Assembly (NCBI GenBank): GCA_022703645.1
Contig: JAKLDG010000001.1
Coordinates: 507,918 to 571,917, forward strand
Direction: 5' to 3'
Length of the DNA stretch: 64,000 nucleotides
Source: Patescibacteria group bacterium
Lineage (GTDB): Bacteria > Patescibacteriota > JACPGU01
The translations under genes were made by a program, and so were the position numbers. Position 1 is the stretch's first letter; each line of letters starts with the position of its first letter. The notes under the pieces were generated by a model. That model saw only the letters and a list, made by a program, of their open reading frames with translations. It searched no databases and was not told the origin of the DNA. This document shows, piece after piece, positions 323 to 64,000 of this stretch.

Positions 323-883
323 CTACTCCCTTCCCCCTTCCGGAGCATAGAGTTTATATTCCGGCTGGCATGTTTCCATTATTTCCGCGGTAGAAGAAGT
401 CCAAGTGTTCGCCCCAGTTTCACTTACTGAACCAATACCATAATATAATATAGGATCTCTATCACAAGAAGTAGTAATTATAAAAATTTTTTCAATTACT
501 CCACCGGCATAAGTGGCTTTGACTTTCACATTCGCTGGACTGGCATCTGAAAAGACTGTCGCGCCAATTTTTACTGTAACCGTTGAAATACCGGCAGTGT
601 TTGTATTTGACCAAGTAGTACCTCCGACAGAAAAAGTGCCAAGCGCAGTGTCAATTATTTGCCAATCGAAAGTAACGCTTGCGCCGGCAAGGCTCGCTCC
701 ATCTTCATCAAAAGCAGAAACCGATAAATTCAACTCTGTATTCAAACTACCCGATATTCCAGAACAAAAAAGATATGCGGAACAAGCAGCGCAACTATTG
801 CAGGCAGCAGCCAAAGCAGGGGTTGGCATAAAGAACCCAAGCGTTAAAAGTATAGTTATGATAAATAATATCTTTTTTGTCAT
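323..883 (-). CDS. Secreted Cys-rich hypothetical protein (signal peptide ...PALAAAC)
   Basis: 186-aa ORF. The N-terminal K-rich/hydrophobic/AxA signal peptide and Gly/Thr/Ser-rich beta-type composition are seen in sequence. It is last in a co-directional run of secreted and TPR genes. Confidence 0.55.
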   Translation of the reverse strand: MTKKILFIITILLTLGFFMPTPALAAACNSCAACSAYLFCSGISGSLNTELNLSVSAFDEDGASLAGASVTFDWQIIDTALGTFSVGGTTWSNTNTAGISTVTVKIGATVFSDASPANVKVKATYAGGVIEKIFIITTSCDRDPILYYGIGSVSETGANTWTSSTAEIMETCQPEYKLYAPEGGRE

Positions 884-915: not shown

Positions 916-1512
916 TTATTTACTGTACTGTGCTAACAAGTTTTTCATTTCTGGATTACCAGGAATTGCGCTTAACCCTTGGTTCAAGACACCTATCGCC
1001 TCTTGCGCTTTATTCATTAGATTATTATATAAAAAGGCTAAACTAATATAAACTTTATAGTTTTTGGCATCCAGACTGATTGATTTCTTATAATTAGTTT
1101 CGGACTCGCTATATTTTCCTTGATCTCTATAAACATTTGCTAAATTACTATAGGATCTGGCATCTGTAGGATCTTTTTCAATGGCTTGGAGATAGACTTT
1201 CTCAGCGCTATCGAGTTTCCCCAAGTTATAATATGCGACACCCAGATTGAAAAGATCCTCTGCAGTCGCCGCTCCATTTTGCTGCTTTGTGGTAATTTCC
1301 TTAACAATTTGATTATAATTTTTCTTCACATCTTGGGCTGGTGTTTGGGTTTGCTCGTTATTTGTATTTTGAACGGTATTTTGAACCGGTGTTACAGATG
1401 TATTATTCTTTTTATTAGTAAATTTGAAAACTAATCCTATACCCACGATAATAATAATGATCGCGGCAAGAATTAATGCTATTAGTTTTTGAGAAGTTGA
1501 TAGACTTTTCAT
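916..1512 (-). CDS. Membrane-anchored tetratricopeptide-repeat (TPR) protein
   Basis: N-terminal TM helix (LIALILAAIIIIIVGIGLVF). The C-terminal part carries repeated TPR signatures (LGVAYYNLGKLDSAEKVYLQAIEKDP, YSNLANVYRDQGKY...). Confidence 0.7.
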   Translation of the reverse strand: MKSLSTSQKLIALILAAIIIIIVGIGLVFKFTNKKNNTSVTPVQNTVQNTNNEQTQTPAQDVKKNYNQIVKEITTKQQNGAATAEDLFNLGVAYYNLGKLDSAEKVYLQAIEKDPTDARSYSNLANVYRDQGKYSESETNYKKSISLDAKNYKVYISLAFLYNNLMNKAQEAIGVLNQGLSAIPGNPEMKNLLAQYSK

Positions 1513-1530: not shown

Positions 1531-3735
1531 TTAAAATGATTTGATTCTTGGTACGCGGATGGTTATGTTTTTATTAAATGTACTACCATCGCCATTTCCA
1601 GTAATTTTCAGTTTTATTATTCCTGATTCAATTAAATGAATTACCGCTTTTTGTTTGCCGGCAACTATCGAAGGATTGATAGTACTGGAACAGATACTTT
1701 CGACACCAGTGTCTGGATTTATTAGCGTACACTGCGTCGTATATTCCCCATTGGCAAATATTGCTCCGTCTGTATCTACTAAATAAAAGTCAAGTATCAC
1801 ATCATCACCCGCTCTTACCGGCGTAGAACATTTCGTTTTATCTGAACAAATGTCATAGTTGTTTCCGTCTTGCACGATGGTAATGCCTCCGCCATTAACG
1901 CCGGTTAAGGTTTGATTTCCGCGTTGCAAAGAAGCGCTAAAAATCAGGTTTGAAACGGCGGAGGAGGGAGTGCAGCTTCTTGTATCGTCTCGATTAGTTG
2001 GTGTTGTTAGAGAACCATCAATCCTTTGACATTCTGTTCCGCCATAAAGCGGCGCGGGATTATTGCAAGTTCGGGTCTGGAGATAACCCCCTGACTGATT
2101 GCAAACCCCCCACGCATCAGTAACCCAAGAATAAGTATAAGAAGGAGCGGCTGCGATTGAAAAATAACAATTTTGAGAAATCGTTTTATTGCCATCGCTA
2201 TCGGTAACTTCTACTTTTGCCGTATAAGCATGGCCGTTTTCAAGTCCATCTATACCGCAATTGCCACTGGTAATTGCGTAAGGGCTGATAGCATTATAGT
2301 CGTCTCTCCGGCAAGCTAATCCTGTAGGTGCTGTACTATCAGTTAAAATGAAATGATAATTTGTTATATAACCGTCTTCTGCGTCAAAAACATTATTCCA
2401 ATTAAAAGTAAAATTTTTGGTTCCTGCTGGTAATTCGGTATAAGGACAATTATTAATATTTGGTTGAGGAGGATAAGTATTGGTAGTGGGAGCAGTAGGG
2501 GCTGAACCAACTGTTACGGTAACGTTTTTGGACGCACTGCCTCCTGGACCCGTACATGTTGCTGTATAAGTAGTTGTGGCTGTAAGATTATTAACTGGTT
2601 GAGTCCCGGATATACCCGTCCAATTACCAGGATTAATAGTACAAGAAGTAGCATTGGAAGAATTCCATGTCAGAACAGTCGTACCATTGTAGGAAATCGA
2701 AGCGGGCGAAGCCGAAAAAGATATGGTAGGAAGAGGAATAGAAGGTATTAATTTAAAATATGCCATTACGGTCGCATTGGAAATAAGAGTAACAACAGTA
2801 TTTGCAGAACTGCTATTTTCTATAGAACCCCCACCAGAAATTATTACCCATTTATCAAACTCATAACCTGCTTTTGGGCTGGCAGAAATTGATAATTTTG
2901 ATCCGATTGCTCCGACTCCTCCACCCGAAACCGTTCCATTACCATCACTAGATTCAACATTTAATGTTACAGTCAAATTATTAACTATTGATTGATATGG
3001 ATTACTAGATGCATTACTGGTCGCAACCCATAATTGAACCGTAAAAGGACCTGAGGAATTATAAGTATGCTGAATAACAGGACCACCTGAACCTTGGTTG
3101 TTATCACCAAAGTTCCATAAATAACTAGTTATCGGCAAACCTGATGGAGACGAAGAAGAAGATGCGTCAAAATTAACAGTATTGTCATTTTTGGTATAAG
3201 TGAATAAAGCAATTGGTTTAATCGGATTGAAATAACTCGTTGCTGGCAGATTCCAGGCATATAGCCCCGCGCCTAAGCCATTCGGAGCATAGCTATAAAA
3301 ATAAGGTTTATATGTTACTGAACTACCCTCCGGAATGACTGGGTACTGTACGGTTATATTTATTTCATAGCAACCATATGCGCTTAAAGCTCCCGCATCA
3401 TAAAAATTTGACATACCGCTAAAACCAGTTCCTAATGCGAAAGTTATCCCACTCGTATGACCATAATCTGCATCGAAAATCCAAGAACTATTAATAGAAT
3501 TTACCCCGCCTTTAATCGTATATAACATTTTTGGCGCATTTGGATAAGCTGATGATAAATAACTATATGTATTACTTGCAGCACAAGAAGGCCAACCGGC
3601 AACACCAGTGATTGTTGTGGATATCGAAGCAGTCGCAGGAGCTGAAGCCGCTTTTGCTTTTTGAGGAACAGAAATAATTGAAGCAAAGATAGCCCCTATG
3701 AATAAAACAGCTATAAATAATATTTTTTTATTCAT
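1531..3735 (-). CDS. Large secreted multidomain adhesin-like protein (PKD-like, InlB-B-repeat-like, thrombospondin-type-1-like segments)
   Basis: 734 aa with a signal peptide (AIFASIISVPQKAKA). It contains a PKD-type motif (SYLWNFGDNNQGSGGPVIQHTY...FTVQLWV), an InlB B-repeat-like block (GNGTVSGGG...ASPKAGYEFDKWV...TVMAYF) and a W-x2-W-x2-C...G-x-Q-x-R-x-C TSP1-like motif (WVTDAWGVCNQSGGYLQTRTCNNPAPLYGGTEC). A GGAGGG Shine-Dalgarno sequence sits upstream inside the preceding gene. Confidence 0.65.
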   Translation of the reverse strand: MNKKILFIAVLFIGAIFASIISVPQKAKAASAPATASISTTITGVAGWPSCAASNTYSYLSSAYPNAPKMLYTIKGGVNSINSSWIFDADYGHTSGITFALGTGFSGMSNFYDAGALSAYGCYEINITVQYPVIPEGSSVTYKPYFYSYAPNGLGAGLYAWNLPATSYFNPIKPIALFTYTKNDNTVNFDASSSSSPSGLPITSYLWNFGDNNQGSGGPVIQHTYNSSGPFTVQLWVATSNASSNPYQSIVNNLTVTLNVESSDGNGTVSGGGVGAIGSKLSISASPKAGYEFDKWVIISGGGSIENSSSANTVVTLISNATVMAYFKLIPSIPLPTISFSASPASISYNGTTVLTWNSSNATSCTINPGNWTGISGTQPVNNLTATTTYTATCTGPGGSASKNVTVTVGSAPTAPTTNTYPPQPNINNCPYTELPAGTKNFTFNWNNVFDAEDGYITNYHFILTDSTAPTGLACRRDDYNAISPYAITSGNCGIDGLENGHAYTAKVEVTDSDGNKTISQNCYFSIAAAPSYTYSWVTDAWGVCNQSGGYLQTRTCNNPAPLYGGTECQRIDGSLTTPTNRDDTRSCTPSSAVSNLIFSASLQRGNQTLTGVNGGGITIVQDGNNYDICSDKTKCSTPVRAGDDVILDFYLVDTDGAIFANGEYTTQCTLINPDTGVESICSSTINPSIVAGKQKAVIHLIESGIIKLKITGNGDGSTFNKNITIRVPRIKSF

Positions 3736-4337
3736 TATTTAATACCCTCCAGAAAGCTTTCTATCATTGAATCATTTTTATTGAATTCCAAGCCTTTTTC
3801 CAAAACTTTTTTTGCTTCCTCTATATTCCCCTCCTCTTTCAAAATCATAGACAAACCGACATAATTGACTGAATTATTTAAACCCATATCTATAGACTTT
3901 TGATAATTTTCCTTTGCCAAATCATTTTTACCGGCCGCTAAATACGCATGCGCCATATTGGTATAGTTGATGGCAACATCCGGTTCCAAGGCAATTAGTT
4001 TTTGGTAATAAGAAATGGATTTATCATAATTCCCAAGATTGTAATAAACAGCGGCAATTTGCAACAGCGCGTCTTTATCATTAGGATTAATTAAAATATA
4101 TTTTTCCAAATCAGTTACGGAAGATTTAAAAATATTTATCTTTTCTTCTCCGGATATTTTCTTACCATCTTTCTCTCCTTTAAAAGCGCTGCTAATATCT
4201 TGTTTGGCAGTTTCGGCTTTTTGGGTTACATTTAATTTCACATTTTTTGAATATTGAACAAAACCAAAATACCCCGCTATAATGATCGCGATTAAAACTG
4301 GAATTAAAACTAAGATTGTTTTTTTACTTAATTTCAT
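3735..4337 (-). CDS. Membrane-anchored TPR repeat protein
   Basis: N-terminal TM (ILVLIPVLIAIIIAGYFGF). It has TPR signatures (AAVYYNLGNYDKSISYYQKLIALEP, YTNMAHAYLAAGKNDLAKENYQKSI). Its stop overlaps the start of the downstream gene by 1 nt. Confidence 0.7.
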   Translation of the reverse strand: MKLSKKTILVLIPVLIAIIIAGYFGFVQYSKNVKLNVTQKAETAKQDISSAFKGEKDGKKISGEEKINIFKSSVTDLEKYILINPNDKDALLQIAAVYYNLGNYDKSISYYQKLIALEPDVAINYTNMAHAYLAAGKNDLAKENYQKSIDMGLNNSVNYVGLSMILKEEGNIEEAKKVLEKGLEFNKNDSMIESFLEGIK

Positions 4338-4361: not shown

Positions 4362-5135
4362 TTATGGTATTGTGCAATTTTGCGTAACAGTAGGCTTAGC
4401 GCCCGTACAAAAACTGTCATTTACTATAACTCCGTCCGATCTTCGGCAATAAACATTCCTGCTTTGTGTCCCATTATTACCAAGTACACAACTTCCCCAA
4501 TTACCCCAAGCGCCATTAATTGCCAAAGTAAATGTAGCCTTAACATCTTTGGCAGTATCCATCGTCACTGTACAGAGATTATTAGTACCGGTACAAGCCC
4601 CACTCCAACCGGTAAAAGCAGAGCCAGCGGAAGCGTTTGCCTTCAGCGTTATTGAACTATTATACATTTTATCTACATAACAGCTTGTACCACAGCTGAT
4701 ATCTCCGGCAGGATTAGTAGAAAGGACTCCCCCGGAACCAGTACCATCTTTGGTAACAGTAAGTCTATAAGTTTGAACAGAAAAGTTTGCCCTTACAAGA
4801 CCATTCCCCGCGCCAAAAGTAAAAATAGCAGGGTTAGAGTTTGGATCAGAAATAGAACCATTACTAGAAAGCACCGCCCAGTTAGAAAAAACATATCCGG
4901 GTTTAGCTGTAGCCTTAATTTCCCTAGTAGAACCGACTGCCCCGGGACCAGCCCCGCTTGTCGTACCCCAACTACTGGGATTAACCTGAAGCGCAAGATT
5001 ATAAGTGGTTTGCGCGAACCCCTTAATCGTACCGCCAACAAAAAAAACCAAAACTGCAATAACTAAAATCAACATCAATAAAATATTGCTTTTTTGCTTT
5101 GCTTTCTTATTTGTATTTATATCTATCGGATCCAT
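4362..5135 (-). CDS. Secreted protein with two InlB-B-repeat-like domains and a C-terminal thrombospondin-type-1-like repeat
   Basis: N-terminal signal anchor (LLMLILVIAVLVFFVGG). Repeats of the G.G.V...A.A.PGY.F..W.....N.....T...NA.F type appear twice. The C-terminus reads NGAWGNWGSCVLGNNGTQSRNVYCRRSDG...C...QNC. Confidence 0.6.
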   Translation of the reverse strand: MDPIDINTNKKAKQKSNILLMLILVIAVLVFFVGGTIKGFAQTTYNLALQVNPSSWGTTSGAGPGAVGSTREIKATAKPGYVFSNWAVLSSNGSISDPNSNPAIFTFGAGNGLVRANFSVQTYRLTVTKDGTGSGGVLSTNPAGDISCGTSCYVDKMYNSSITLKANASAGSAFTGWSGACTGTNNLCTVTMDTAKDVKATFTLAINGAWGNWGSCVLGNNGTQSRNVYCRRSDGVIVNDSFCTGAKPTVTQNCTIP

Positions 5136-8548: not shown

Positions 8549-8550
8549 AA

Positions 8551-8621
8551 CAGGGGTGGTAGGAATCGAACCCACATCATTGGTTTTGGAGACCAATGTC
8601 CTACCATTGAACGACACCCCC
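8551..8621 (-). tRNA. tRNA-Trp (anticodon CCA)
   Basis: The reverse complement folds as a cloverleaf with anticodon loop CTCCAAA, T-arm GTGGG-TTCGATT-CCTAC, and acceptor GGGGGTG/CACCCCT with discriminator G. It closely resembles the E. coli tRNA-Trp anticodon arm (GGTCTCCAAAACC). Confidence 0.8.
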
Positions 8622-8762
8622 GCATCGCAGTGAGTTCCGTGCTTTCCATAAAAATTCAATTAAGAATTTTTCCTTCAAGCATTCCACACTGCTCCTTTTA
8701 CGAAAAAATCCGACTATATATTTTGGTATAGATTTTTTCGTTACTAATTCAAAGATTTTTAT

Positions 8763-8933
8763 TTATTTCGCTTCTTTATGCGGTGTATTTGCTCTGCATC
8801 TATTGCAAAATTTTACCAACTCCAATTTATCAGGAGTATTTCTCTTGTTTTTGGTCGTGTGATAATTTTTTTCTTTACATTTAGTGCATTCAAGAGTTAC
8901 TAATCCTCTTGGCCCCTTACTTTTCTTTGCCAT
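8763..8933 (-). CDS. rpmG: 50S ribosomal protein L33
   Basis: A 56-aa ORF not in the supplied track: [56 protein letters not shown]. It has the characteristic L33 CxxC...CxxC zinc-ribbon and the [11 protein letters not shown] motif. It sits in a tRNA cluster next to tRNA-Trp, as in many bacteria. Confidence 0.85.
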
Positions 8934-9019
8934 GTCTTCTTCCCGACATTACGTCGGGACTCCTTTTAATTAATACTTTATAACTTTTAACTTTACAACA
9001 TAATAGTTATCTATGCCAA

Positions 9020-9092
9020 AGCCGTTGTCGGGAATCGAACCCGAGACCTTCACCTTACCATGGTGACGCTCTGCCAACTGAGCTACAACGGC
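9020..9092 (-). tRNA. tRNA-Thr (anticodon GGT)
   Basis: Reverse complement GCCGTTG-TA-GCTCAGTTGGCAGAGC-G-TCACC-ATGGTAA-GGTGA-AGGTC-TCGGG-TTCGATT-CCCGA-CAACGGC-T. The cloverleaf is canonical and no CCA is encoded. Confidence 0.8.
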
Positions 9093-9162
9093 AAAAGAAA
9101 AATATAGTCGCGGAGCAACACCGAATTTTTAATTTTTAATATTTAATTCTGGTTTTTTATAA

Positions 9163-9235
9163 AGCCGCCCATCGGACTCGAACCGATGACCTGCCGCTTA
9201 CAAGGCGGCTGCTCTACCAACTGAGCTAGGGCGGC
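9163..9235 (-). tRNA. tRNA-Thr (anticodon TGT)
   Basis: Reverse complement GCCGCCC-TA-GCTCAGTTGGTAGAGC-A-GCCGC-CTTGTAA-GCGGC-AGGTC-ATCGG-TTCGAGT-CCGAT-GGGCGGC-T. Confidence 0.8.
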
Positions 9236-9239
9236 GAAA

Positions 9240-9322
9240 TGGTGGGAGCAGGATTTGAACCTACGAAGGCCGAAGCCAACAGATTTACAGTCTGTCCTCG
9301 TTGACCGCTTGAGTATCCCACC
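9240..9322 (-). tRNA. tRNA-Tyr (anticodon GTA), type II with long variable arm
   Basis: Reverse complement GGTGGGATACTCAAGCGGTCAACGAGGACAGACTGTAAATCTGTTGGCTTCGGCCTTCGTAGGTTCAAATCCTGCTCCCACCA. It is nearly collinear with E. coli tRNA-Tyr, with anticodon loop CTGTAAA. Confidence 0.85.
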
Positions 9323-9353
9323 ATAAAATTTTTAATTTTATAATTTTTAATTT

Positions 9354-9725
9354 TTAAAACGAATCTTCAATTGACCGGTCACATTTTCTCGAAATAGCCG
9401 CAAATATCAACGTCAGCTCATGAGCCTCCAACCATAATATCCTACATCTCCTACATCGATCAATATGGCTCTCATTTGAAGTTCCTATCATTCTTAGCCA
9501 ATACTTTGTTTCGTTGGCTTCTTTTTGACAAATTCGTGTTTTGTTCTTAAAATCCTTCTTACTGCTTGCTCCATTAGCTTCCATATAATTAGCTCCGATA
9601 CTTGTTGCTGATCTAACTATCTGAGAAATTAAAGGTCTCGATATTTCATTCCCGTCAATCCCCATGCAAAATTTTATAACATTTTCACCAAACCGCGCAA
9701 CCCTCTCTTCTAAATCATAGTTCAT
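9354..9725 (-). CDS. Four-helix-bundle protein (TIGR02436 / '23S rRNA intervening-sequence protein' family)
   Basis: 123 aa with the characteristic segment SQIVRSATSIGANYMEANGASSKKDFKNKTRICQKEANETKYWLRM. This family is very common in CPR genomes near rRNA/tRNA loci and introns. The gene is flanked by inverted copies of AATTTTTAATTTTTAA (9343-9358 and 9753-9768). Confidence 0.7.
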   Translation of the reverse strand: MNYDLEERVARFGENVIKFCMGIDGNEISRPLISQIVRSATSIGANYMEANGASSKKDFKNKTRICQKEANETKYWLRMIGTSNESHIDRCRRCRILWLEAHELTLIFAAISRKCDRSIEDSF

Positions 9726-9768: not shown

Positions 9769-10482
9769 TTACTCAATTCCCTTCATCTCTGCTATTTTAT
9801 CTGTAACTTCACGGATTAATTTTTGGTAATCTTCGTTATCTTTATCCAAAACCAAAGCTTTTTTGTAAGCATCAATCGCTTTATCATAACGTCTTAATGC
9901 CGCAAAGGCAAGACCGAGATTAATATAGCGGTGTGGAACAAGACTATTTAATTGAATAGATTTTTGATATGCATCTATGGCCTCTACATATCTGCCTTGA
10001 TTAAATAATGATAAACCAAGATTATTATAAGTTAAATCATTGTGCTTATCATACTTTAAAGCAATTTTAAAAGATTCTTTAGCATCGGAGTAAACTCCCT
10101 GCTCAAGATAAATAATTCCTAATTTATTATATATTTTAGAATTTGTCGGGTCAATCTCCAATCCTCCAATTAAAACCCTTTCTGCCTCACCATACTCTTT
10201 TTTCTCCATAAATTTATCAGCCTTTTCTATTAATAGGTCCATTGATGCTTCATCTTTGCTTGTTTTTTCTTTTCTAATTGAAAGCATTTTCTTGCCGGTT
10301 TTTCTTTTTTTATTAAAATAGTCTTCTTCCGATGCCTCAAATTTATTCATTTGCTGGATCATGCCATCTCCATTTTCTGAACCTTCCGGAATGTTTTTCA
10401 ATTCACCTGATACCGCGGGAAACTTTCGGGCAATTATAATAAATATGACCGCCAGCGCTATTAATAAAATTATTATTTCCAT
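9769..10482 (-). CDS. Membrane-anchored TPR repeat protein
   Basis: N-terminal TM (MEIIILLIALAVIFIIIA). Multiple TPR signatures (YNKLGIIYLEQGVYSDAKESFKIALKYD, YNNLGLSLFNQGRYVEAIDAYQKSIQLN, YINLGLAFAALRRYDKAIDAYKKALVLD). Confidence 0.7.
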   Translation of the reverse strand: MEIIILLIALAVIFIIIARKFPAVSGELKNIPEGSENGDGMIQQMNKFEASEEDYFNKKRKTGKKMLSIRKEKTSKDEASMDLLIEKADKFMEKKEYGEAERVLIGGLEIDPTNSKIYNKLGIIYLEQGVYSDAKESFKIALKYDKHNDLTYNNLGLSLFNQGRYVEAIDAYQKSIQLNSLVPHRYINLGLAFAALRRYDKAIDAYKKALVLDKDNEDYQKLIREVTDKIAEMKGIE

Positions 10483-52348: not shown

Positions 52349-55300
52349 TTATTTCAATCTTGTATTCTTTATTATCTTTTCAATCTTAGTAGTGTTGGTA
52401 CCATATTTACCTTCAAACGTGAATTTGGTATCAAAAGCTGAAGCAGTGGTTAACCCTTGAACATCAAAGGTTATCACAGTTGAACCATTATTAACAACTA
52501 GCCCAGTAACACAATTACTTTTTACTGTTAATGGATTACCGTCTGCGTCAGAAGCCCCAACTACCTTGTAGCCTGATGGCATAGATGCGCAGGCTTTGAC
52601 GGTCCAGTTGGTAGTAGATTCAAGAACAAATTCGTAAGAATGAGAGTTAACACCAGCGCCCCAGACCACAGATTCTGGGTAAGTCAGGTTAAGATTTGCT
52701 GGAGTAGTAATAAAGTCTTCATCACCTGGGTCTACTGCTACACAAATCTTGTTGGCATCTTTAGAGCTACATTTAACCTTCACACTCTTCATAACTTTGT
52801 TGTTCATCTTTGCTACCGGTCCTTTATTGAAGTTAAACTTATCAGAAGTTAATTTTCTACAAATGGTAGTAGTATGAGTTGAACTATCTACCGGATCGGA
52901 GATAACCACACGGGTAGCAGTGATATAGTTATCAATCTTAGGAAGAATGATATATTGAGAACTCTTTGTAATTGCAGCTTCTTTGGTGGTTGCTGTGTTA
53001 CCATCATATATAGAAGCACATTGAGCCTTAACCTTCTTGTCGAAGTCTTTAGATCCTAATGCAGTTATTAATGCTGCTTGGGTATAGACTTTGGTATTAA
53101 CTGAATCGATTACTTCTCCACGAGAGTCCCCTACTGGCCCAGGAATTAGAGAAGTTTTTGCTGATTTCTTTTCCTTACCATTTACTATGCCTGCAAAACC
53201 TACAACATCTTTACTATACACTACATGCAGATCACCTGTAGCTAATATAGCAGCTTTTACTGAAACGCCTAACGCAAATCTAGTAAAGTGAGTTGTAGTA
53301 AATGTTATATAGTAGTTAGAACCAGAGATACCAGTATCAGTAATGTTGTCATGATCAGCCCAGGTATTCCCTGCATCGGGAGAAAAGAATACATGGACAT
53401 CAGTAATAGCATAGCCAAGACTGTCCAAAAGAGCCTTATCAATCTTTAATGTTATTGTTACTGGAGAATTGAATGTCAGACCATCTGGTGAAAATTCATA
53501 TGAAGTTAATCCATCATATATACCGAATGGACCGGTGATCATGAAGTTAGATCCTGTTCCATCAATGCTGATTGTTGTGTCAGTGGAAAGCGCGCCAGCA
53601 GGAACAGTGATAGAAGCATTTGTGTCTGGAGTTGTAAGAGTAGCCCCCGCACTGGTAACCAATCCTGAAACATAAGCAGGGTTAGTTGGAGCAGCATTAG
53701 AGATGGAAATACTATTAATCTCAGGGGTAGAATTAGGATCGTTTGACATTAAGATTGTTTTATATTGAATGTACTGTCCTGTTGGAGAGCCAACTGGTTC
53801 TCCGGAATTACCATGATTTTGCCAATCAGACCACGCGCCTGAATATATTTCAAATTCATTAATGGCTACTGTATTAACTGCGCCTTCATCAACTTGTTTG
53901 GTGATATGTAACCTGAGTTTCCTTGTCTCAACTGTACTGAAGGATATTGAGAAATGATTATTAGAATTATTACCAATAACTTGTTGGACAGTATTCCAAT
54001 CAGAATCTACGGTTGGCTCACAATTATTATCATCTACACATACCTGAATATCAAAATCTACAGGATACATTTTTGTGCCGTACCATAGATCAACTTTAGA
54101 TACTTTGGTTGGAGATGCAAAATCAACCGCTACCCATTGAGGATTGGATGGCGATATTGATGATCCATTATCTTCGCTCTGCCAACCACTAAATTCCCTA
54201 TCACCATCAGCGATATTTGATACGTCACCAAATGGATAGTTTGGTTCTCCAGAACTAGATGAAAGATTTTTATTTAAAATAATATTTGTAATTGGATCAG
54301 CAGCAGCAGTTCGAGTCTGTAATGTTATTGATGTGCCAGCAGGAGTATTTGCAGTCCAGTCAATCGTACCCCAGTCTGTCTGGGCTCCAGTATTAATTAT
54401 GGAGGAAACCAAAGATGAAGAACCCGAATAACCTAACGGACCCAGCTTCTGCGCGTAAATTTGTGTGTTTAGCATACTATAGTCTTCCCATGCAGTGATT
54501 GCGCTTCCGGTTTCTGCTGTAGTTAAAACGGGAAAGCTTTGTCCGGCAGCTTTAGTGGCAATCGCCAAGCCATCTGCTCCCCACAAAGTGTTGCCGAAAG
54601 AATCTATATCTTGTCCATAAATATCAGAGTTCATACCGGAACGAAAATCGTTCCATACGATTATAGCACCTCCGTTGCCATCAGAAGCAATCTGATGGTC
54701 AAACTGAACTTGACCAAAATAATTCGAAACCGCTACTCCCGCAGGATTCCATATTAAAGAACCGGAAGAGTCAATTTTTTGAGCATAAATATTATATGTA
54801 GTTGGCGTATTGCGATCGTCAGCCCAGCTTATTATTGCGCCACCGTTGCCATCTGAAACAATTTTAGAATATACTTCCATACTTGTCGTAGTCGCGATTC
54901 CAACTCCATCTGCCTGCCATTTTATTGCCCCGGAGCTGTCAACTCTCTGGGCATAAACATTATTATCATTTGGGCTTACTCTATCATCCGACCAAGTTAC
55001 TATTACACCATTGCTACCATCCGATGTAATCTGCGGATCCTGACCACCATTTATCGTTACTTCAGCCCATTGCAATGAACCGGAACTACTAATTCTTTGC
55101 GCAAAAAGACCAGAACCATTTTGAGTGATATTAAGACCATCCCAAACCACTATCGCACCGCCTGAACCATCCGAAACCAATTTCGAATTTGAGTCCCTAT
55201 AAGTATTATTAGTAGAAATCTTGACGCCGTCCGTTGCCCATTGGAAAGAACCTGACGAATCTAATTTTTGCGCATAAACATGATATTGCCAATTTCTGCT

Positions 55301-56056
55301 GTCAAACCATGATACAATAAACCCACCGTTTCCATCCTGAATAATCATAGGTTTGCCCTGACCGCGTTGCGCCGCGCAAACAACAACTCCAGAGCCCCAT
55401 ATTAAATTACCTGAAGAATCAATCCTTTGAGCATAGATATCATCACCGTTATAATTACGATAGTCACCCCATACCACAACTACTCCTCCAAAACCGTCTG
55501 GGGTGATATGGTAATCTCTTTCTGAACCTATATCTTCATACAGACTTAGCTGTTTTACTTCCCACATAACTCCACCTGACGGATTAACCTTCTTGATTAC
55601 TAAATCAGCATTGGTATTATCAAACATCGCCATTATAGTGTTGCCATTGCCATCCGGAATAATATTTGTAAACATATATTGTAGCGCATCTGAAGATATA
55701 TTTAAACCGCCATTCTGCCATTTTGATATTGACAGATCCATAGCCAATCTTCCGGCGCTTGAGGTATTGACAGATCCTTCGGTTGAGTAGTATTTATTCC
55801 AACCAGCCGCATCTCCTGGGAGAACCGCCATAGACGCCTGATCCGCGCCTCCAGTCCAGTCGTTTTGGGTGAAGATCACGGTGCCTGAAGCTTTGGTATT
55901 AAACATCATAAGCTTTTTCAAACTTAGTCCGTCTAGACTTACCACTACAGCAAAAGATGCAATTAGAGCCAAAGCAGAAATTCCAATAAAAAGTTTATAG
56001 TTCTTTTTTGGAGTACATTTCTTTGGTTTGCATTTTTTACAAAACATTTTTTTCAT
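52349..56056 (-). CDS. Giant secreted/surface protein: beta-propeller repeats + discoidin (F5/8 type C) domain + C-terminal Ig-like domains
   Basis: 1235 aa. The N-terminus is basic and Cys-rich (CKKCKPKKC) followed by a TM/signal anchor. It has about eight ~50-aa repeats (YAQ(K/R)(I/L)DSSG...W...GV......sDG.GG.I..W.D.R). The discoidin-like segment reads VAVDFASPTKVSKVDLWYG...FDIQVCVDDNN...LRLHITKQ. Confidence 0.6.
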   Translation of the reverse strand: MKKMFCKKCKPKKCTPKKNYKLFIGISALALIASFAVVVSLDGLSLKKLMMFNTKASGTVIFTQNDWTGGADQASMAVLPGDAAGWNKYYSTEGSVNTSSAGRLAMDLSISKWQNGGLNISSDALQYMFTNIIPDGNGNTIMAMFDNTNADLVIKKVNPSGGVMWEVKQLSLYEDIGSERDYHITPDGFGGVVVVWGDYRNYNGDDIYAQRIDSSGNLIWGSGVVVCAAQRGQGKPMIIQDGNGGFIVSWFDSRNWQYHVYAQKLDSSGSFQWATDGVKISTNNTYRDSNSKLVSDGSGGAIVVWDGLNITQNGSGLFAQRISSSGSLQWAEVTINGGQDPQITSDGSNGVIVTWSDDRVSPNDNNVYAQRVDSSGAIKWQADGVGIATTTSMEVYSKIVSDGNGGAIISWADDRNTPTTYNIYAQKIDSSGSLIWNPAGVAVSNYFGQVQFDHQIASDGNGGAIIVWNDFRSGMNSDIYGQDIDSFGNTLWGADGLAIATKAAGQSFPVLTTAETGSAITAWEDYSMLNTQIYAQKLGPLGYSGSSSLVSSIINTGAQTDWGTIDWTANTPAGTSITLQTRTAAADPITNIILNKNLSSSSGEPNYPFGDVSNIADGDREFSGWQSEDNGSSISPSNPQWVAVDFASPTKVSKVDLWYGTKMYPVDFDIQVCVDDNNCEPTVDSDWNTVQQVIGNNSNNHFSISFSTVETRKLRLHITKQVDEGAVNTVAINEFEIYSGAWSDWQNHGNSGEPVGSPTGQYIQYKTILMSNDPNSTPEINSISISNAAPTNPAYVSGLVTSAGATLTTPDTNASITVPAGALSTDTTISIDGTGSNFMITGPFGIYDGLTSYEFSPDGLTFNSPVTITLKIDKALLDSLGYAITDVHVFFSPDAGNTWADHDNITDTGISGSNYYITFTTTHFTRFALGVSVKAAILATGDLHVVYSKDVVGFAGIVNGKEKKSAKTSLIPGPVGDSRGEVIDSVNTKVYTQAALITALGSKDFDKKVKAQCASIYDGNTATTKEAAITKSSQYIILPKIDNYITATRVVISDPVDSSTHTTTICRKLTSDKFNFNKGPVAKMNNKVMKSVKVKCSSKDANKICVAVDPGDEDFITTPANLNLTYPESVVWGAGVNSHSYEFVLESTTNWTVKACASMPSGYKVVGASDADGNPLTVKSNCVTGLVVNNGSTVITFDVQGLTTASAFDTKFTFEGKYGTNTTKIEKIIKNTRLK

Positions 56057-57186: not shown

Positions 57187-60126
57187 CTAATATTTTAACT
57201 GCCAGCCGGCAATAATTATATCCGGATTGATCTGAAGTGAAGGATAGTTATATTTGTTTAATTCAACTAAATCAACCCACATATTTTCTACTCCATATAA
57301 CACGAAAGCGATGCTTGAAAGCGAATCACCGCCTTTTACTATATAAATATTTTCACCAGCACCTTGTGTTGACAGCTGATATTTGAATACCCATCCACTA
57401 TAAATTATATTTGGTATCGTGACAAGTGTGGAAAACTGTTCGCTATTCAACGCAACTAATATTTCTCTCGTAGTACCTAATTGCGCCGCAATACTATAAA
57501 GGGAATCCCCTGGTTGAACTACATAAAATCCATAAACGATTTCTTGGATTGGGTTTACGATCGATTCGGGGGTAGGTTCTGGGATCGGCGTTGGAGTTGG
57601 TTCAGGTATAGGAGTTGGAGTGGATTCTTCTGGAGTTGGTATGGCCTCAGAGATAGGTTCAGGAATAGGTTCGGAAGTTGGTGGAATAAAAGTATATACA
57701 GATGGCGGTTGTGGAGCTGTTTCGATAGTCCAGGAATAATTAGCAGGAGTTAAATCAACATTCCCTACTAGATCTGTAGCCTTAACTTCAAATGAATGAA
57801 CTCCTAAAGATAACCCGCTATAATTAACCGGGCTGGTACATACTGCAAATAAAGCTCCGTCAACCCGACATTCGAAAGTTGAGGCTTCACTGGAGCTGAA
57901 AGTGAAGGTTGCATCGGTTGAATAAGTTACCAAAGCTGGGTTGGAATCTATGATAGTATTTGGGCTAGTTGAATCAATATTTATCGGATTAGCTGAAGAT
58001 AGAACAGATTTATTAGCAAGCGCATCTTCTGAATAAATACAGATGTAAAAACCATTATTGGTTTCGTCTGATTGGTTCATAGAATCAGTATCCAGTTTTG
58101 TAAAGGTATCGGTAATAGAACAAGTGTTGGTAGCGAAATAATCCCATTTTTTCACCACAGCTGCGTCCCAGTCACCGGTAATAGTATCACTTGCGACTGG
58201 ACCTATTTCCACATCGTTTGCAAAGGAAAGAGCCGGAGCGGTAGCATCTATATTGATTTTATTGGCAGAAGCCAAAACAGATTTATTCCCAAGGGAGTCT
58301 TCACCATAAAGGCATATATAGAAACCATTATTGGTTTCGTCTGATTGGTTCATAGAATCAGTATCCAGTTTTGTAAAGGTATCGGTAATAGAACAAGTGT
58401 TGGTAGCGAAATAATCCCATTTTTTCACCACAGCTGCGTCCCAGTCACCGGTAATAGTATCAGAAGACACTGGACCAGCAGCTATATCATTGGTAAAAGA
58501 AAGTGCTGGTGGAGTTGCATCTATACTAATACTATTAGTAGAAACTAAGATAGATTTATTACCAAAACCGTCCTCCCCATAAAGACAAATATACCTGCCG
58601 TTATTGGTTTCATCTGATTGGTTCATAGAATCAGTATCCAGTTTTGTAAAGGTATCGGTAATAGAACAAGTGTTGGTAGCGAAATAATCCCATTTTTTAG
58701 TAGTTGAATCTCCCCAAGAGCCTATAATAGTATCACTCTGAATTGGACCGGCTGCCACATCATCCACAAAGGAAAGAACCGGACTTAAATTATCTACTCG
58801 GAAGCTTGCCGAAGTCTGAACAGATCCATCTACCAGACTATCACTTGGAGTTACTCTAATCTGGTAATTGCTTTGATCTAAGCCATCCAAAGATCCCCCA
58901 CCATTCGAAGCATTTTTGGTATCCCAAACTATATTTAATGTTACCGCGCCACCGGAGGTATCAATCGGATTGCTAGTTCCTATCTGATAAGCATTACTAT
59001 TATTCAGATCAATAGCCCCAGACGAGGGTGTTGCAAAAGCAAGATAAGGAGCATACCAATTCATTCCCCCATCCGGTGAATATTCTACTTTTAGTTTAGT
59101 ATTTTGTAAGTTTGCATCAGAAATATTAGTCTGAATATTTACATAACCAGTACCATCAGTCGGCTGAGAAATAAATGAAGGAATGGTCGCCACGGGCGCA
59201 ATGTTTGCCGAAACAACAACCTCATTACTTAATGCGGATACAAGGGTACCCGATGTTGCGCATATTTTTATACTTTCTGCTGCAGAATATCTCATCATTG
59301 TATAACTTTTTACCCCTGAAGTTACTGCTGTGCCTGATGCCGGGTTAGAGAATAAAACACCCGAACCTAGTGTCCCCCCGCAATTCTGATCTGAAAGCAC
59401 CGGGGTAAGCGTAATTGTAGAAGTATTATCAGTCGTTACTGTATGACCAAATTGATCTTGTACTGCAATCACTGGTTTAACTGCAAAACCAATATTAATA
59501 ATAGCAGTAGCCGAAGGTTGATTTGTAAAAATAAGTTTATTTTTGGCTCCTATAGCTTGGGATAGAGCACCAAAACTAGTTGAATCGTTCACTATCCCCA
59601 CGATTGCTCCCGTTCCAGGGTTTGCTGATGTTCGATAAATATTTCCTGAAGAAGGAATAACGGATCCGTCAATAGCGCGTACTTGCAGCCCGCTAATAGT
59701 CATTACATCCGATTTATTTGCTGTACCATCTGTAGAAAAAGTAATTGTTATTGTTGTGGCCGTAACTGCTATAGAACTAGATGTTATATCTCTAGCTGCC
59801 GTATAAGTAACTGTCCCAACACCAGGATTAAATGACCAGTTATTTGGTGCTGTTAAAATTAAAGTGGTATTTGTTTGACTCGCTGCAAAGTCACCATTTG
59901 CTCCCTCGGTAATGACAATATTGCCAAGCGTCGTCCATGCTGGAGTTGTGGCATTTGCCGCTTTGTCTGCAGAAATATTTGTGCCTCCAGAAGATGGGGT
60001 TACATTTGCTGCTGCTTCAGTTTTCAGACTCATATAAACTCCGACGGACAGCAAAAAAATAATCACTCCGATTAAAAAGAATCGTAGATATTTATTTTTT
60101 ATGGTTTTTAGAAAAAGATTTTCCAT
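57187..60126 (-). CDS. Large secreted surface protein with three near-identical 91-aa tandem repeats, a Cys-containing Ig-like domain, a Pro/Thr/Glu linker and two C-terminal LysM-like repeats
   Basis: 979 aa. Signal anchor (FLIGVIIFLLSVGVYMSL). The triplicated unit reads ...KKWDYFATNTCSITDTFTKLDTDSMNQSDETNNG(F/R)YIC(L/I)Y.ED.... The Ig-like domain reads TFTFSSSEASTFECRVDGALFAVCTSPVNYSGLSLGVHSFEVKATDLVGNVD. The linker is PEPISEAIPTPEESTPTPIPEPTPTPIPEPTPE. The C-terminus has YVVQPGDSLYSIAAQLGTTREILVALNS.. and YIVKGGDSLSSIAFVLYGVENMWVDLVELNK...AGWQLKY. Confidence 0.6.
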   Translation of the reverse strand: MENLFLKTIKNKYLRFFLIGVIIFLLSVGVYMSLKTEAAANVTPSSGGTNISADKAANATTPAWTTLGNIVITEGANGDFAASQTNTTLILTAPNNWSFNPGVGTVTYTAARDITSSSIAVTATTITITFSTDGTANKSDVMTISGLQVRAIDGSVIPSSGNIYRTSANPGTGAIVGIVNDSTSFGALSQAIGAKNKLIFTNQPSATAIINIGFAVKPVIAVQDQFGHTVTTDNTSTITLTPVLSDQNCGGTLGSGVLFSNPASGTAVTSGVKSYTMMRYSAAESIKICATSGTLVSALSNEVVVSANIAPVATIPSFISQPTDGTGYVNIQTNISDANLQNTKLKVEYSPDGGMNWYAPYLAFATPSSGAIDLNNSNAYQIGTSNPIDTSGGAVTLNIVWDTKNASNGGGSLDGLDQSNYQIRVTPSDSLVDGSVQTSASFRVDNLSPVLSFVDDVAAGPIQSDTIIGSWGDSTTKKWDYFATNTCSITDTFTKLDTDSMNQSDETNNGRYICLYGEDGFGNKSILVSTNSISIDATPPALSFTNDIAAGPVSSDTITGDWDAAVVKKWDYFATNTCSITDTFTKLDTDSMNQSDETNNGFYICLYGEDSLGNKSVLASANKINIDATAPALSFANDVEIGPVASDTITGDWDAAVVKKWDYFATNTCSITDTFTKLDTDSMNQSDETNNGFYICIYSEDALANKSVLSSANPINIDSTSPNTIIDSNPALVTYSTDATFTFSSSEASTFECRVDGALFAVCTSPVNYSGLSLGVHSFEVKATDLVGNVDLTPANYSWTIETAPQPPSVYTFIPPTSEPIPEPISEAIPTPEESTPTPIPEPTPTPIPEPTPESIVNPIQEIVYGFYVVQPGDSLYSIAAQLGTTREILVALNSEQFSTLVTIPNIIYSGWVFKYQLSTQGAGENIYIVKGGDSLSSIAFVLYGVENMWVDLVELNKYNYPSLQINPDIIIAGWQLKY
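57971..58790. repeat. Intragenic tandem repeat, 3 copies x 273 bp (approximate bounds)
   Basis: The string gtttcgtctgattggttcatagaatca recurs at 58061, 58334 and 58607, i.e. at exact 273-bp spacing. Long stretches are identical between copies, and the + strand track ORFs 58072..58344 and 58345..58548 have identical N-termini for this reason. The repeats lie in frame within 57187..60126. Confidence 0.85.
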
Positions 60127-63100: not shown

Positions 63101-64000
63101 CTCGCTCTGTTCAGAGGTATTGGAAACCAGATCAAAGGCTTGGATTTTCAGATTACCGGAACTTAATAAACGGATTGTGCAATCTACGGTTTTGATATCC
63201 GTTTGTGTACAGTTTAAATTATCGTAATCATCTATTGTATTTTCATCATCTATAGAAACATTGACCGCTAATATTTCATTATCATCAGTGACATGAATTG
63301 CAGTATCAGTAATGGCACTATTAGAAGTTTTCGTTGGTGCAGTAATTATAATTACCGGACCAGTATTATCGATTACATAGTTATTTTCTGTCTGTGTCCC
63401 TTGATTATTAAATGAATCGAGAGCTTTGATTACTAAATTACCTGAAGAAGAAATATTTATGGAACAATCTACCGTTTTCGCATTAGTTTGAATACAAGAA
63501 AATCCGCTAGTTCCGGCAGTAGTTGAAGTATCTATTTCAACACTATTAGCCAAGACCCCAATATTGTCAGTAATATGAATCTCGGTCGTGGTAATTGCAG
63601 CATTTGAAAGTTTATCCGGAGCGCTGATGATTATAACTGGAGCTGAAGAATCAATGACATAACCATCTTCTTCCCCAGATATTTGATTTGATGCGCCGTC
63701 TTCAGCGCGAATTACCAATTTGCCTGAACCGGAAATTTCGATTGCGCAATCTACTGTACTACTATTGGTTTGAGTACAGCTGAAATTGCTATAAGCAACT
63801 GTGGTTGATGGATCGACTAAAACACCACCGGTAAAAATAGCGCCATTATCTGTAATATGAATAGTAGTATCAGTAACCAAACTGCCAGCAGTCTTGGTTG
63901 GAGCCGTGATAGAAACTACTGGGTTAACCATATCAATGATAAATCCATTTTCAGTTGCTACTGAATTATTAGCTACTACATCAGAAGCGCTAATTGCCAA
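60146..64000 (-). CDS. Giant surface protein, partial (N-terminus beyond window end): five Ig-like ~90-aa repeats, a Cys Ig-like domain, three NBR1-like domains shared with the L,D-transpeptidase, Glu/Pro-rich linkers and four LysM-like repeats
   Basis: >=1284 aa. Repeated units IISAPDKLSNAAITTTEIHITDN...NGYVID. A domain TFVFSADESSTFKCKIDGSYYTTCSSPKNYSGLANGSHTFYVYAVDLAGNSD. Three copies of (Y.Y.LVSQSPYPSTLKPGETTDVW.EVKNTG...W...RLGTGS...F.IKAPT..G.Y.AYFTPVADG..WM.DIGL.WE..V). Four copies of Y.V.PGE.L..(I/V)A.K.YGD.E.W..LVELN.D..PSL...P.II...W.L.F. The ORF is open to the window edge. Confidence 0.6.
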   Translation of the reverse strand: MAISASDVVANNSVATENGFIIDMVNPVVSITAPTKTAGSLVTDTTIHITDNGAIFTGGVLVDPSTTVAYSNFSCTQTNSSTVDCAIEISGSGKLVIRAEDGASNQISGEEDGYVIDSSAPVIIISAPDKLSNAAITTTEIHITDNIGVLANSVEIDTSTTAGTSGFSCIQTNAKTVDCSINISSSGNLVIKALDSFNNQGTQTENNYVIDNTGPVIIITAPTKTSNSAITDTAIHVTDDNEILAVNVSIDDENTIDDYDNLNCTQTDIKTVDCTIRLLSSGNLKIQAFDLVSNTSEQSENGYAVTITVPVISISAPTKASSANITNTTIHITDSGGVDSAGVSVDGATTAGFTDFACTQVDSYTVNCSISITSSGDLKIKALDSISGAGFGIENGYIIESIPPETTLSSTPALNATSSSATFVFSADESSTFKCKIDGSYYTTCSSPKNYSGLANGSHTFYVYAVDLAGNSDATPESYTWSISVSQQNNSGGGNNLIQDTTPPTNTSISINSGASSTASASVTLTLGATDAISMMISNNAYFIGSSWETFVNSKAWALATGYGTKTVYAKYKDAAGNVSGSVSDSIIFSENVEVTEPEPIIEEPELEQPEEILQPEVIPEIPEQPQEIVQPEQQIEQTIPVEGYNYQLVSQSPYPSTLKPGETTDVWIEVKNTGTAVWDSKVRLGTGSMYGSPSQQRDYPSEFANINWLSVNRPTSIINPNSTAISSYVEPGNDAKAQFTIKAPTTPGTYRAYFTPVADGVTWMTDIGLYWEVTVVGDGQEQPEVQPQPEVQPEPIVEIQPEPQLIYSYELVSQSPYPSTLKPGETTDVWVEVKNTGSVAWDSNVRLGTGSSFGSSAQKRDYISEFAAENWLSPNRASSIPDFLIESGDTARFEFTIKAPTQIGNYKAYFTPVADGTGWMNDIGLFWEISVRSDSGIYTVQPGENLKTVAEKVYGDSERWRDLVELNKDTFPSLVSRPDIIYSEWQLRFGNIQQTSEPIAENQSQPVSQPVPQAQPEVQKIIGDYYIVQDGDSLKSIARELFQDEEQWTRLVELNKDIFPSLESDPSIIVAGWKLRFKELPTVAPTGEFGYYKVEPGEDLQWIALKLYGDQEKWRRLVELNQDQYTNLSLDGGANVIYSDWLLKYDILGSTSTYGYEVVGQSGYPTQISAGEEIEVWIELKNTGTVSWFKDGANPVRFGTGSIYGSPTQQKDYTSEFANSDWIAPNRCTSFDTAEVKPGEVGRFTFKIKAPADAGTYKSYFTPVVEGLVWMEDKGIYWQLTVE

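Follow-up and report, generated by a model that had tools for sequence, protein, structure and literature searches.

A probably secreted protein of an uncultured Patescibacteria bacterium appears to carry, at residues ~533-590, a genuine but reduced thrombospondin type-1 repeat (TSR) of the thrombospondin-1 (TSP-1) or 'group 1' kind, as part of an exported surface adhesin; we put the probability of this reading as a whole at roughly three in four. TSRs are adhesion modules best known from animals and malaria parasites. Judged from its sequence, the segment is very probably a homologue of these repeats, and the chances of an adhesin role for the protein are about even. The finding adds one more lineage to a known domain family and does not amount to a new kind of system.

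The gene lies on a 64,000-nucleotide stretch of DNA, referred to here as the window (Table 1). The protein (the target) comprises, in this order, a probable signal peptide, an unknown N-terminal domain, a PKD domain, an InlB-B-like repeat, an Ig-like domain, a cysteine-containing β domain, the TSR and a β-rich C-terminal region. Its first residues, MNKKILFIAVLFIGAIFASIISVPQKAKA/ASAP, resemble a Sec signal peptide that would be cleaved at an AxA site, and its PKD and InlB-B domains are likewise of extracellular type. The PKD-like and InlB-B-repeat-like domains that the first-pass annotation of this DNA had proposed were confirmed by Pfam, with scores above the gathering values of 27 (PF18911), 23.5 (PF00801) and 23.6 bits (PF18998). 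The TSR is present as a single copy between β-sandwich domains, and HMM scans of the six-frame window gave no further copy. An identical sequence is deposited at NCBI as HRY60483.1 under the name 'PKD domain-containing protein [Patescibacteria group bacterium]'. That name is its only annotation so far.

Table 1 Features of the target gene and its neighbours, with positions in the window
Feature	Position	Strand	Basis
Gene for the 734-aa, probably secreted multidomain protein (target)	1531..3735	minus	ORF list, Pfam, exact look-ups
Probable Sec signal peptide, aa 1-29, cleavage after KAKA	3649..3735	minus	Read from the sequence
PKD domain, aa 181-245	3001..3195	minus	PF18911 53.8 bits, PF00801 31.3 bits; ColH PKD structures matched in the PDB
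Divergent InlB B-repeat (Flg_new_2), aa 263-330	2746..2949	minus	PF18998 41.3 bits
TSR domain (very probable), aa ~533-590	~1966..2139	minus	PDB phmmer, exhaustive search, alignments, HMMs, shuffles, AF2 model
198-aa TPR-repeat protein with a single N-terminal transmembrane helix; its gene starts 18 nt downstream of the target gene	916..1512	minus	TPR families, coordinates
200-aa protein, one N-terminal transmembrane helix and TPR repeats	3735..4337	minus	TPR families, junction sequence
257-aa protein with N-terminal membrane/signal segment, two InlB-B-like repeats and C-terminal TSR	4362..5135	minus	PF18998 61.9 bits, PF19030 29.5 bits (cut-off 23.8)
Second TSR, ADAMTS/THSD7A type, aa 205-257 of the 257-aa protein	4365..4523	minus	PF19030 TSP1_ADAMTS 34 bits for the segment alone; THSD7A (8oxr) E=2.6e-5

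Four independent sequence tests support the homology: a phmmer search of the PDB, an exhaustive search, an HMM from which the target was left out, and an HMM of canonical TSRs. When the target segment alone was searched against the PDB, thrombospondin-1 (1lsl) was the best match, with E=7.5e-5, followed by UNC5, C6, C8, properdin and ADAMTS, and all 22 matches at E<=10 were TSR proteins. Exhaustive phmmer searching of 1.84 billion proteins returned 433 that match the TSR at E<=0.001. The best single-domain relative among them, P0135, scored 40.3 bits in an alignment that spans 53 residues and includes all four cysteines of the target, and its own tandem repeat is a Pfam TSP_1 domain (33.1 bits). 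By comparison, 60 shuffled segments of the same composition reached 4.9±1.9 bits, with a maximum of 9.3, against a panel of TSR proteins on which the real segment scored 40.3 bits. The leave-target-out HMM, built from 14 relatives, gave the target 53.1 bits over residues 537-588. The canonical HMM, which we constructed for this analysis from 127 TSRs of PF00090-annotated proteins and ran with filters off, gave it 26.1 bits, mainly over ~31 residues, and this was its sole match in the six-frame window. Finally, the family profile of the target TSR matches TSP-1 at 1.4e-23. The TSR-like segment noticed in the first-pass annotation is thus borne out, both by the PDB match and by the distance between the real and the shuffled scores.

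That annotation had also named two observations that would speak against a TSR, namely silence of the TSP_1 profiles and a cysteine pattern incompatible with the fold. The profiles are indeed silent: neither Pfam TSP_1 nor its sister models (PF00090, PF19028, PF19030, PF19035 and PF22195, with TSP_1, TSP1_spondin, TSP1_ADAMTS and TSP1_CCN among them) matched the whole target at E<=1 or the isolated 68-residue segment at E<=10, and NCBIfam gave no match for the target. The cysteine pattern, in contrast, is compatible with the fold, since the target's four cysteines fall at positions C1, C3, C4 and C5 when aligned with six-cysteine relatives. No homologue came out of word-indexed searches that used the C-terminal 316 residues or a 70-residue segment as query, which we attribute to limits of the index, as the exhaustive search then recovered hundreds of relatives. 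A profile search with alignment A1 returned only short proteins (120 residues or less), nearly all annotated with PF00090, and yielded little taxonomic information.

Structure prediction, likewise suggested as a check, gave a mixed outcome. AlphaFold2 (AF2) modelled the domain from a 15-sequence alignment with a pLDDT of 75.5, placing β strands at residues 551-556 and 583-587 next to an irregular N-terminal strand, and this predicted secondary structure fits what is expected for a TSR. A Foldseek comparison of the model with the PDB gave nothing significant, the best TSR-containing matches having E=4-9. A single-sequence AF2 run on residues 421-734 stayed below a pLDDT of 30 across the TSR region.

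The peptide on which the first-pass annotation was based, SWVTDAWGVCNQSGGYLQTRTCNNPAPLYGGTECQ, is found at residues 536-570 of the minus-strand ORF (nucleotides 2026-2130). The range assigned to it, 2030-2160, stops at C569, the third of four cysteines, while the domain continues to C588. The motif was also misread: instead of W-x2-W-x2-C followed by G-x-Q-x-R-x-C, the target has W537-x4-W542-x2-C545 and then G-x2-Q-x-R-x-C. Strand A bears W537 and W542, the only tryptophans of the domain, with T534 at the position of W1; the x4 spacing between W2 and W3 recurs in the relatives P0033 and P0015. Strand B, Y551-L-Q-T-R555-T, leads into C557 (C3), and the BC loop, NNPAPLYGGTE, is flanked by C557 and C569 (C4), both invariant in alignment A1. 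The domain thereby retains the most diagnostic stretch of a TSR, strand B with the BC loop, in the form Q-T-R-T-C-N-N-P-A-P-x-x-G-G-x-x-C, whose 'QTRTC' is common among its relatives. A long segment, RIDGSLTTPTNRDDTRS, separates C569 from C588 (C5), an interval with about 9 additional residues.

Alignment with the six-cysteine relative P0135 identifies C545 as C1, C557 as C3, C569 as C4 and C588 as C5. The three-disulfide pattern that was to be looked for is therefore out of reach with four cysteines rather than six; at most two of the three bonds would be possible, C557-C569 (C3-C4) and C545-C588 (C1-C5). In the crystal structure of TSP-1, the layered core is capped by just these bonds, C3-C4 across the BC loop and C1-C5 at the bottom (Tan et al. 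2002, PMC2173040). The third, C2-C6, is lost, with C2 replaced (C545-N-Q-S-G-G) and no cysteine following C588 within the domain. Of the arginine layers, R555 (C3-2) is invariant in alignment A1, and Q553 and Y551 occupy C3-4 and C3-6; TSR3 of TSP-1 also has a glutamine at one R layer (PMC2173040). The layered core may consequently be thin, the Trp/Arg ladder being down to two tryptophans and one arginine. The domain is slightly acidic, with 4 Arg against 5 Asp/Glu.

Among known TSRs, TSR2/TSR3 of TSP-1 (1LSL), the group-1 prototype described by Tan et al. (2002), is the closest in the PDB. The two share strand B and the BC loop (R-x-C-N-N-P-x-P-x-x-G-G-x-x-C), the group-1 top layer with one cysteine closing strand B and another opening strand C, and the C1-C5 pair. 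Unlike TSP-1, the target lacks the C2-C6 disulfide and with it the CSVTCG motif and the O-fucosylation motif, has no W1, reads W-x4-W instead of W-x2-W, keeps one Arg layer where TSP-1 has two or three, holds ~9 more residues between C4 and C5, has a slightly negative net charge and no basic groove, and occurs as a single copy in a bacterial protein. The C-terminal TSRs of complement C6, C7, C8 and C9 likewise do without the third (bottom) disulfide (Tan et al. 2002, PMC2173040), and C6 and C8 are among the PDB matches of the target; these are, however, animal pore-forming proteins whose tryptophans are canonically spaced and which have no long insertion between C4 and C5. TSRs of the Plasmodium TRAP/CSP type also have a reduced layered core, and the TRAP repeat, like the target, has no W1 (Tan et al. 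2002, PMC2173040). They differ from the target in their group-2 disulfide pattern, which joins strands A and C at the top, in binding heparan sulfate via a basic surface, and in being glycosylated in the ER. As adhesion modules with which a small host-dependent organism attaches to host cells, they offer the closest functional analogy to the possible role of the target.

A chance or convergent likeness, in which a cysteine-, glycine- and proline-rich linker without the TSR fold mimics the motif, would account for the silence of Pfam and NCBIfam, the lack of a significant Foldseek match, the off-consensus strand A and a canonical match confined mainly to ~31 residues. The E-values are, however, calibrated and specific, and the PDB search gave TSR proteins only. 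In addition, shuffles of equal composition stay far below the real score, the closest relative, itself a Pfam TSP_1 protein, aligns over the full set of four cysteines, and the AF2 secondary structure agrees with a TSR. We therefore regard chance as very improbable. Still more remote, to the point of being negligible, is the introduction of eukaryotic DNA into the contig by contamination or chimeric assembly. TSRs are overwhelmingly eukaryotic and the TSR segment has a G+C content of 47.7% against a gene average of 40%; yet this value does not exceed what the gene shows elsewhere (maximum 50.6%), and it is to be expected where Gly, Pro, Ala, Cys, Arg and Trp are abundant. For the same reasons, recent acquisition, considered on the grounds of G+C content, was rejected. 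Moreover, an uninterrupted ORF holds the domain in frame with PKD and InlB-B domains of bacterial kind, the identical protein occurs on 8 contigs of separate data sets (JGI 3300009776, SRR5007146 and an NCBI MAG with an 867 kb contig), and the window has an ordinary bacterial gene content (ArgRS, PBPs, the DNA polymerase III delta-prime subunit and tRNAs).

The rival of most weight, though still an unlikely one, accepts the TSR and assigns it a purely structural task, as a rigid, disulfide-stapled rod element in a protein whose ligands are bound by other domains. Many tandem TSRs in large matrix proteins extend or stiffen stalks. The single copy embedded between β-sandwich domains would suit such a spacer, as would the acidic character and the depleted Trp/Arg ladder, which leave the positively charged 'recognition groove' of TSP-1 (PMC2173040) largely absent. 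On the other hand, the region best conserved between the target and its closest relatives takes in the BC loop, which is exposed, and the additional C4-C5 stretch R-x-D-G-S-L-T-T-x-x-N-R, a degree of conservation beyond what a pure spacer needs; the neighbouring protein, moreover, has a TSR of another type, which suggests purposeful recruitment.

The first-pass statement that these repeats are rare in bacteria is fair in itself; bacterial TSRs are uncommon but already on record, in Candidatus Thiodiazotropha and in metagenomic proteins, and the target is not the first. WP_139116989.1 (P0033) of Candidatus Thiodiazotropha endoloripes bears the NCBI name 'thrombospondin type-1 domain-containing protein', and its best repeat scores 33.6 bits. 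This bacterial protein, with W-x2-W-x4-W spacing, shares with the target the long post-C4 segment C-x-R-x-[DN]-G-[ST]-x-T-[ST]-x-x-[ND]-R and the lack of a Pfam match; it differs in its three tandem copies, its lipoprotein-like N-terminus, a C-x2-C pair replacing C1, the absence of C5 and its source, a gammaproteobacterial animal symbiont. P0015, a metagenomic protein of 2668 residues, starts with a prepilin-like N-terminus and carries 12 TSRs; in its source bacterium UGA codes for Gly, a genetic code that points to a Patescibacteria lineage. Its repeats are of the same subtype as the target (W-x2-W-x4-W, CNNPxPxYGGxEC, REDG[ST]LTTxxNRxEE), but they retain C3-C4 alone and stand in a tandem array, together with a pilin-like anchor and an LRR_5 domain. 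In other metagenomic bacterial proteins, TSP_1 domains that Pfam recognises occur together with cohesin, CARDB and InlB-B domains, and contigs of bacterial TSR proteins also carry nusA/tuf/rpsJ or lgt. A scan of GTDB genomes yielded PKD and InlB-B relatives only, with no locus carrying the TSR pattern DAWGVCNQ, and a literature search for type-1 TSRs in bacteria or the candidate phyla radiation gave nothing relevant, its bacterial material concerning type-3 repeats only.

Together, these relatives allow a speculative reading that we consider doubtful: a small undescribed TSR subfamily, defined by W-x2-W-x4-W, variable cysteine loss and the post-C4 insertion C-x-R-x-[DN]-G-[ST]-[LM]-T-[ST]-x-x-[ND]-R-x-E, might occur in Patescibacteria (including the UGA=Gly lineage with 12 copies on a pilin-like protein), in Thiodiazotropha clam symbionts and in amphioxus hemicentin-like proteins. 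If so, such a distribution would suggest that an adhesion module has passed between animals and bacteria, and host-dependent ultrasmall bacteria might attach to their partners via TSRs as apicomplexans do via TRAP.

Patescibacteria depend on attachment to other cells, and to our knowledge hardly any of the proteins on their surface contain a binding module that can be recognised. According to the reading we prefer, a reduced TSR in a surface adhesin, the target would be exported via Sec by means of its signal peptide. Outside the cell, a stalk made up of the PKD, InlB-B and Ig-like domains would present the TSR, which would act as a small binding module stabilised by disulfides, and the whole protein would form part of a surface adhesin. 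The operon would alternate secreted multidomain proteins, two of them with a TSR, with single-pass membrane TPR proteins, and the gene order suggests that the latter may keep the secreted proteins, which have no anchor of their own, at the cell surface. A sulfated glycosaminoglycan is an unlikely ligand because the domain is slightly acidic and the organism belongs to a microbial community; something on the surface of a host or partner cell would be the likelier ligand. The TSRs of the target and of its neighbour are two concrete candidates for attachment studies. As curated TSR profiles miss reduced bacterial versions, the distribution of TSRs in bacteria is probably underestimated.

A link to type IV pili was considered and dropped, as the genes just beyond the start of the window gave no useful Pfam match. 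Within the operon, the stop codon of the 200-residue TPR protein overlaps the start codon of the target (TAATG). The next secreted gene encodes the 257-residue protein, whose TSR follows the motif GAWGNWGSC...YCRRSDG...FC...NC and, as in the target, has four cysteines. This repeat matches the THSD7A/ADAMTS family (PF19030), including THSD7A d1-d2 in the PDB; it departs from that family in having no more than four cysteines, in its fusion to InlB-B-like repeats and in its bacterial origin. The regular expression W..W.{1,3}C, applied to the six frames, matched the neighbour's TSR alone and passed over the target because of its W-x4-W spacing.

The peptide that the first-pass annotation had read as a TSR (thrombospondin type-1 repeat) is encoded on the minus strand within a 734-aa ORF, at nt 2026-2130 rather than 2030-2160. 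The PKD and InlB B-repeat domains assigned to the same protein were both recovered with Pfam. The protein is identical to NCBI HRY60483.1, 'PKD domain-containing protein [Patescibacteria group bacterium]', whose existing annotation contains no TSR. The window has a G+C content of about 36% and is ordinary bacterial chromosome, with genes including those for ArgRS, penicillin-binding proteins, DNA polymerase III delta-prime, L,D-transpeptidase and six tRNAs.

Features of the 734-aa protein and its operon (all minus strand)
Feature	nt	aa	Remarks
480-aa secreted protein			first gene of operon
257-aa protein	4362..5135		two InlB-B-like repeats, C-terminal TSR
TSR of 257-aa protein	4365-4523	205-257	ADAMTS/THSD7A type
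200-aa single-pass TPR protein	3735..4337		N-terminal transmembrane helix, TPR repeats
734-aa protein	1531..3735		between 200-aa and 198-aa TPR genes
Putative Sec signal peptide		N-terminal	MNKKILFIAVLFIGAIFASIISVPQKAKA/ASAP; typical form, from sequence reading
N-terminal domain			no family assignment; between signal peptide and PKD
PKD domain		181-245	PF18911, 53.8 bits
InlB B-repeat		263-330	divergent; PF18998, 41.3 bits
Ig-like domain, then cysteine-containing beta domain			between InlB B-repeat and TSR
First-pass peptide	2026-2130	536-570	in TSR-like segment
C-terminal region			beta-rich; after TSR
198-aa single-pass TPR protein	916..1512		N-terminal transmembrane helix, TPR repeats
186-aa secreted protein	323-883		last gene of operon; cysteine-rich

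Pfam gave no TSP_1-clan match for the whole protein (E<=1) or the isolated segment (E<=10), and NCBIfam gave no match for the protein. All other sequence tests for homology were positive and specific, so that the Pfam miss is put down to a diverged N-terminal third of the domain rather than to missing homology. In a phmmer search of all PDB chains, a 68-aa segment matched thrombospondin-1 TSRs first (1lsl, E=7.5e-5; 3r6b; 12em), followed by UNC5A/B/D, complement C6 and C8, ADAMTS13, ADAMTS-5 and properdin; all 22 matches at E<=10 were TSR proteins. An exhaustive phmmer search of 1.84 billion representative proteins with a 64-aa segment returned 433 proteins at E<=0.001 (112 at E<=1e-10), the top ones being mostly multi-repeat TSR arrays. 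Against a panel from this search, composition-preserving shuffles (n=60) reached best single-domain scores of 4.9+-1.9 bits (maximum 9.3), versus 40.3 bits for the real segment, which matched 424 repeats above 15 bits. An HMM of 14 relatives, built leaving the protein out, scored it at 53.1 bits (aa 537-588), while a canonical TSR HMM, built from 127 TSRs of proteins with precomputed PF00090 annotation, gave 26.1 bits with filters off (aa 543-573) and had the segment as its sole match across the window translated in all six frames. Finally, a profile of the protein and its relatives matched TSP-1 at E=1.4e-23.

With these results, a chance or convergent resemblance to TSRs appears very improbable. 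Contamination is harder still to entertain, since the gene is continuous, recurs in independent assemblies (eight contigs encode the protein, among them JGI 3300009776 and SRR5007146, the longest of 867 kb), and the 47.7% G+C of the segment lies inside the gene's own range. As judged from these comparisons, the segment is thus shown to be a divergent TSR homologue in a multidomain protein bearing a putative signal peptide. The first-pass reading stands once its motif, coordinates and number of disulfides are corrected.

The closest single repeat (40.3 bits over 53 residues) belongs to P0135, an 894-aa metagenomic protein; it has all six cysteines, and the repeat adjoining it is recognized as Pfam TSP_1 (33.1 bits). 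Aligned to it, C545, C557, C569 and C588 correspond to C1, C3, C4 and C5, while no counterpart exists for C2 (the cysteine of 'TCG') or C6. The layered core seen in the crystal structure of TSP-1 is capped by precisely the C3-C4 and C1-C5 disulfides, whereas the C2-C6 bond, which does no more than 'consolidate' the bottom, is missing from the C-terminal TSRs of complement C6-C9 (PMC2173040). The four cysteines thus fit the fold and would allow two of the three disulfides that the first-pass annotation had expected; of the two observations that it took together as a refutation, the lack of a TSP_1 match was made, but a fold-incompatible cysteine pattern was not borne out. Counted back from C3, strand B presents R555 (R1 layer; the same residue throughout the alignment), Q553 (R2) and Y551 (R3). 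On strand A, W542 takes the W3 position (C1-3) and is accompanied by W537, a W-x4-W spacing instead of the proposed W-x2-W; W-x2-W-x4-W also occurs in relatives P0033 and P0015. T534 occupies the expected place of W1; the first tryptophan is missing from TRAP-type TSRs (PMC2173040). The BC loop, C-N-N-P-A-P-L-Y-G-G-T-E-C, has the textbook form.

The C4-C5 interval spans 18 residues, compared to 9 in TSP-1, and its extra stretch, Q-R-I-D-G-S-L-T-T-P-T-N-R-D-D, is kept in a handful of relatives. This subtype, marked by a conserved stretch inserted behind the fourth cysteine (C-x-R-x-[DN]-G-[ST]-[LM]-T-[ST]-x-x-[ND]-R-x-E), is rare (7 of 275 retrieved proteins). It was found in P0033 (WP_139116989.1, 'thrombospondin type-1 domain-containing protein', Candidatus Thiodiazotropha endoloripes) and P0151 (Ca. 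Thiodiazotropha), P0094 and P0152 (Branchiostoma floridae), P0135 and P0015, and is common to a few bacteria and amphioxus hemicentin-like proteins such as XP_035659771.1. P0135 shares with the 734-aa protein an Ig-like 'LTWNSSNATSC...TC' domain. The 2668-aa P0015 combines a prepilin-like N-terminus with this subtype in 12 repeats; its gene (ENA ERZ930065 contig k127_103368, 140-8146) adjoins lgt and an M23 peptidase gene and contains 171 in-frame TGA codons, given as Trp in the database translation. Reading TGA as Gly (code 25) restores GGWS, YGGxEC and REDGSLTT throughout, which indicates that the contig (G+C 29.6%) comes from a bacterium reading UGA as Gly and that the deposited protein is mistranslated.

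TSRs joined to bacterial domains also occur outside this genome: P0058 combines cohesin with four TSP_1 repeats, P0088 CARDB with TSP_1, and P0141, whose gene adjoins nusA, tuf, rpsJ and rplC, InlB-B repeats with five TSRs. For these bacteria, the searchable literature describes type-3 repeats only and no type-1 TSRs. The segment adds a new, unannotated and reduced member to a domain family that is already known but previously undiscussed in this lineage; it would carry greater weight if the long-insertion subtype were a coherent family that animals and bacteria have exchanged and that serves episymbiont attachment.

We propose that the protein is exported and that its TSR, held by two disulfides, would act as a small module for binding, carried on a stalk that PKD, InlB-B and Ig-like domains form, making the protein a putative adhesin component; a role of the TSR as a structural spacer only seems unlikely. 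With 4 Arg and 5 Asp/Glu, counted on the sequence, the TSR is without the basic groove that heparin-binding TSRs have, and its predicted acidic surface argues against sulfated glycosaminoglycans as ligand. Lacking an anchor itself, the proposed adhesin component may be retained by the membrane TPR proteins encoded alongside it, which may be candidate docking partners for the secreted proteins.

The stop codon of the 200-aa TPR gene overlaps the start codon of the 734-aa gene (TAATG). The neighbouring 257-aa protein carries a second TSR, also with four cysteines, which matches PF19030 (TSP1_ADAMTS; 29.5 bits for the whole protein, cut-off 23.8; 34 bits for the segment alone) and THSD7A (8oxr, E=2.6e-5). 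HMM scans and a motif search of the window in six frames revealed no TSR copies beyond these two. That adjacent secreted proteins bear TSRs of different subtypes speaks for the module being deliberately employed.

The mature part of the 186-aa protein, which has no significant family match, begins with the cysteine-rich AAACNSCAACSAYLFCSG. Two of the three small TPR genes alternate with secreted multidomain genes; the third (9769-10482, minus) likewise encodes a single N-terminal transmembrane helix ahead of TPR repeats, and its product may be a membrane docking partner too. A 123-aa ORF (9354-9725, minus) adjoins the tRNA cluster at 8550-9323 and is assigned, in the annotation precomputed for the JGI contig that matches, to Pfam 23S_rRNA_IVP (a four-helix-bundle protein). 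Three very large minus-strand ORFs in series probably encode further surface proteins: 52349-56056 (1235 aa, F5/8 type C (discoidin) domain), 57187-60126 (979 aa, LysM) and 60146-64000 (at least 1284 aa, continuing past the window end).
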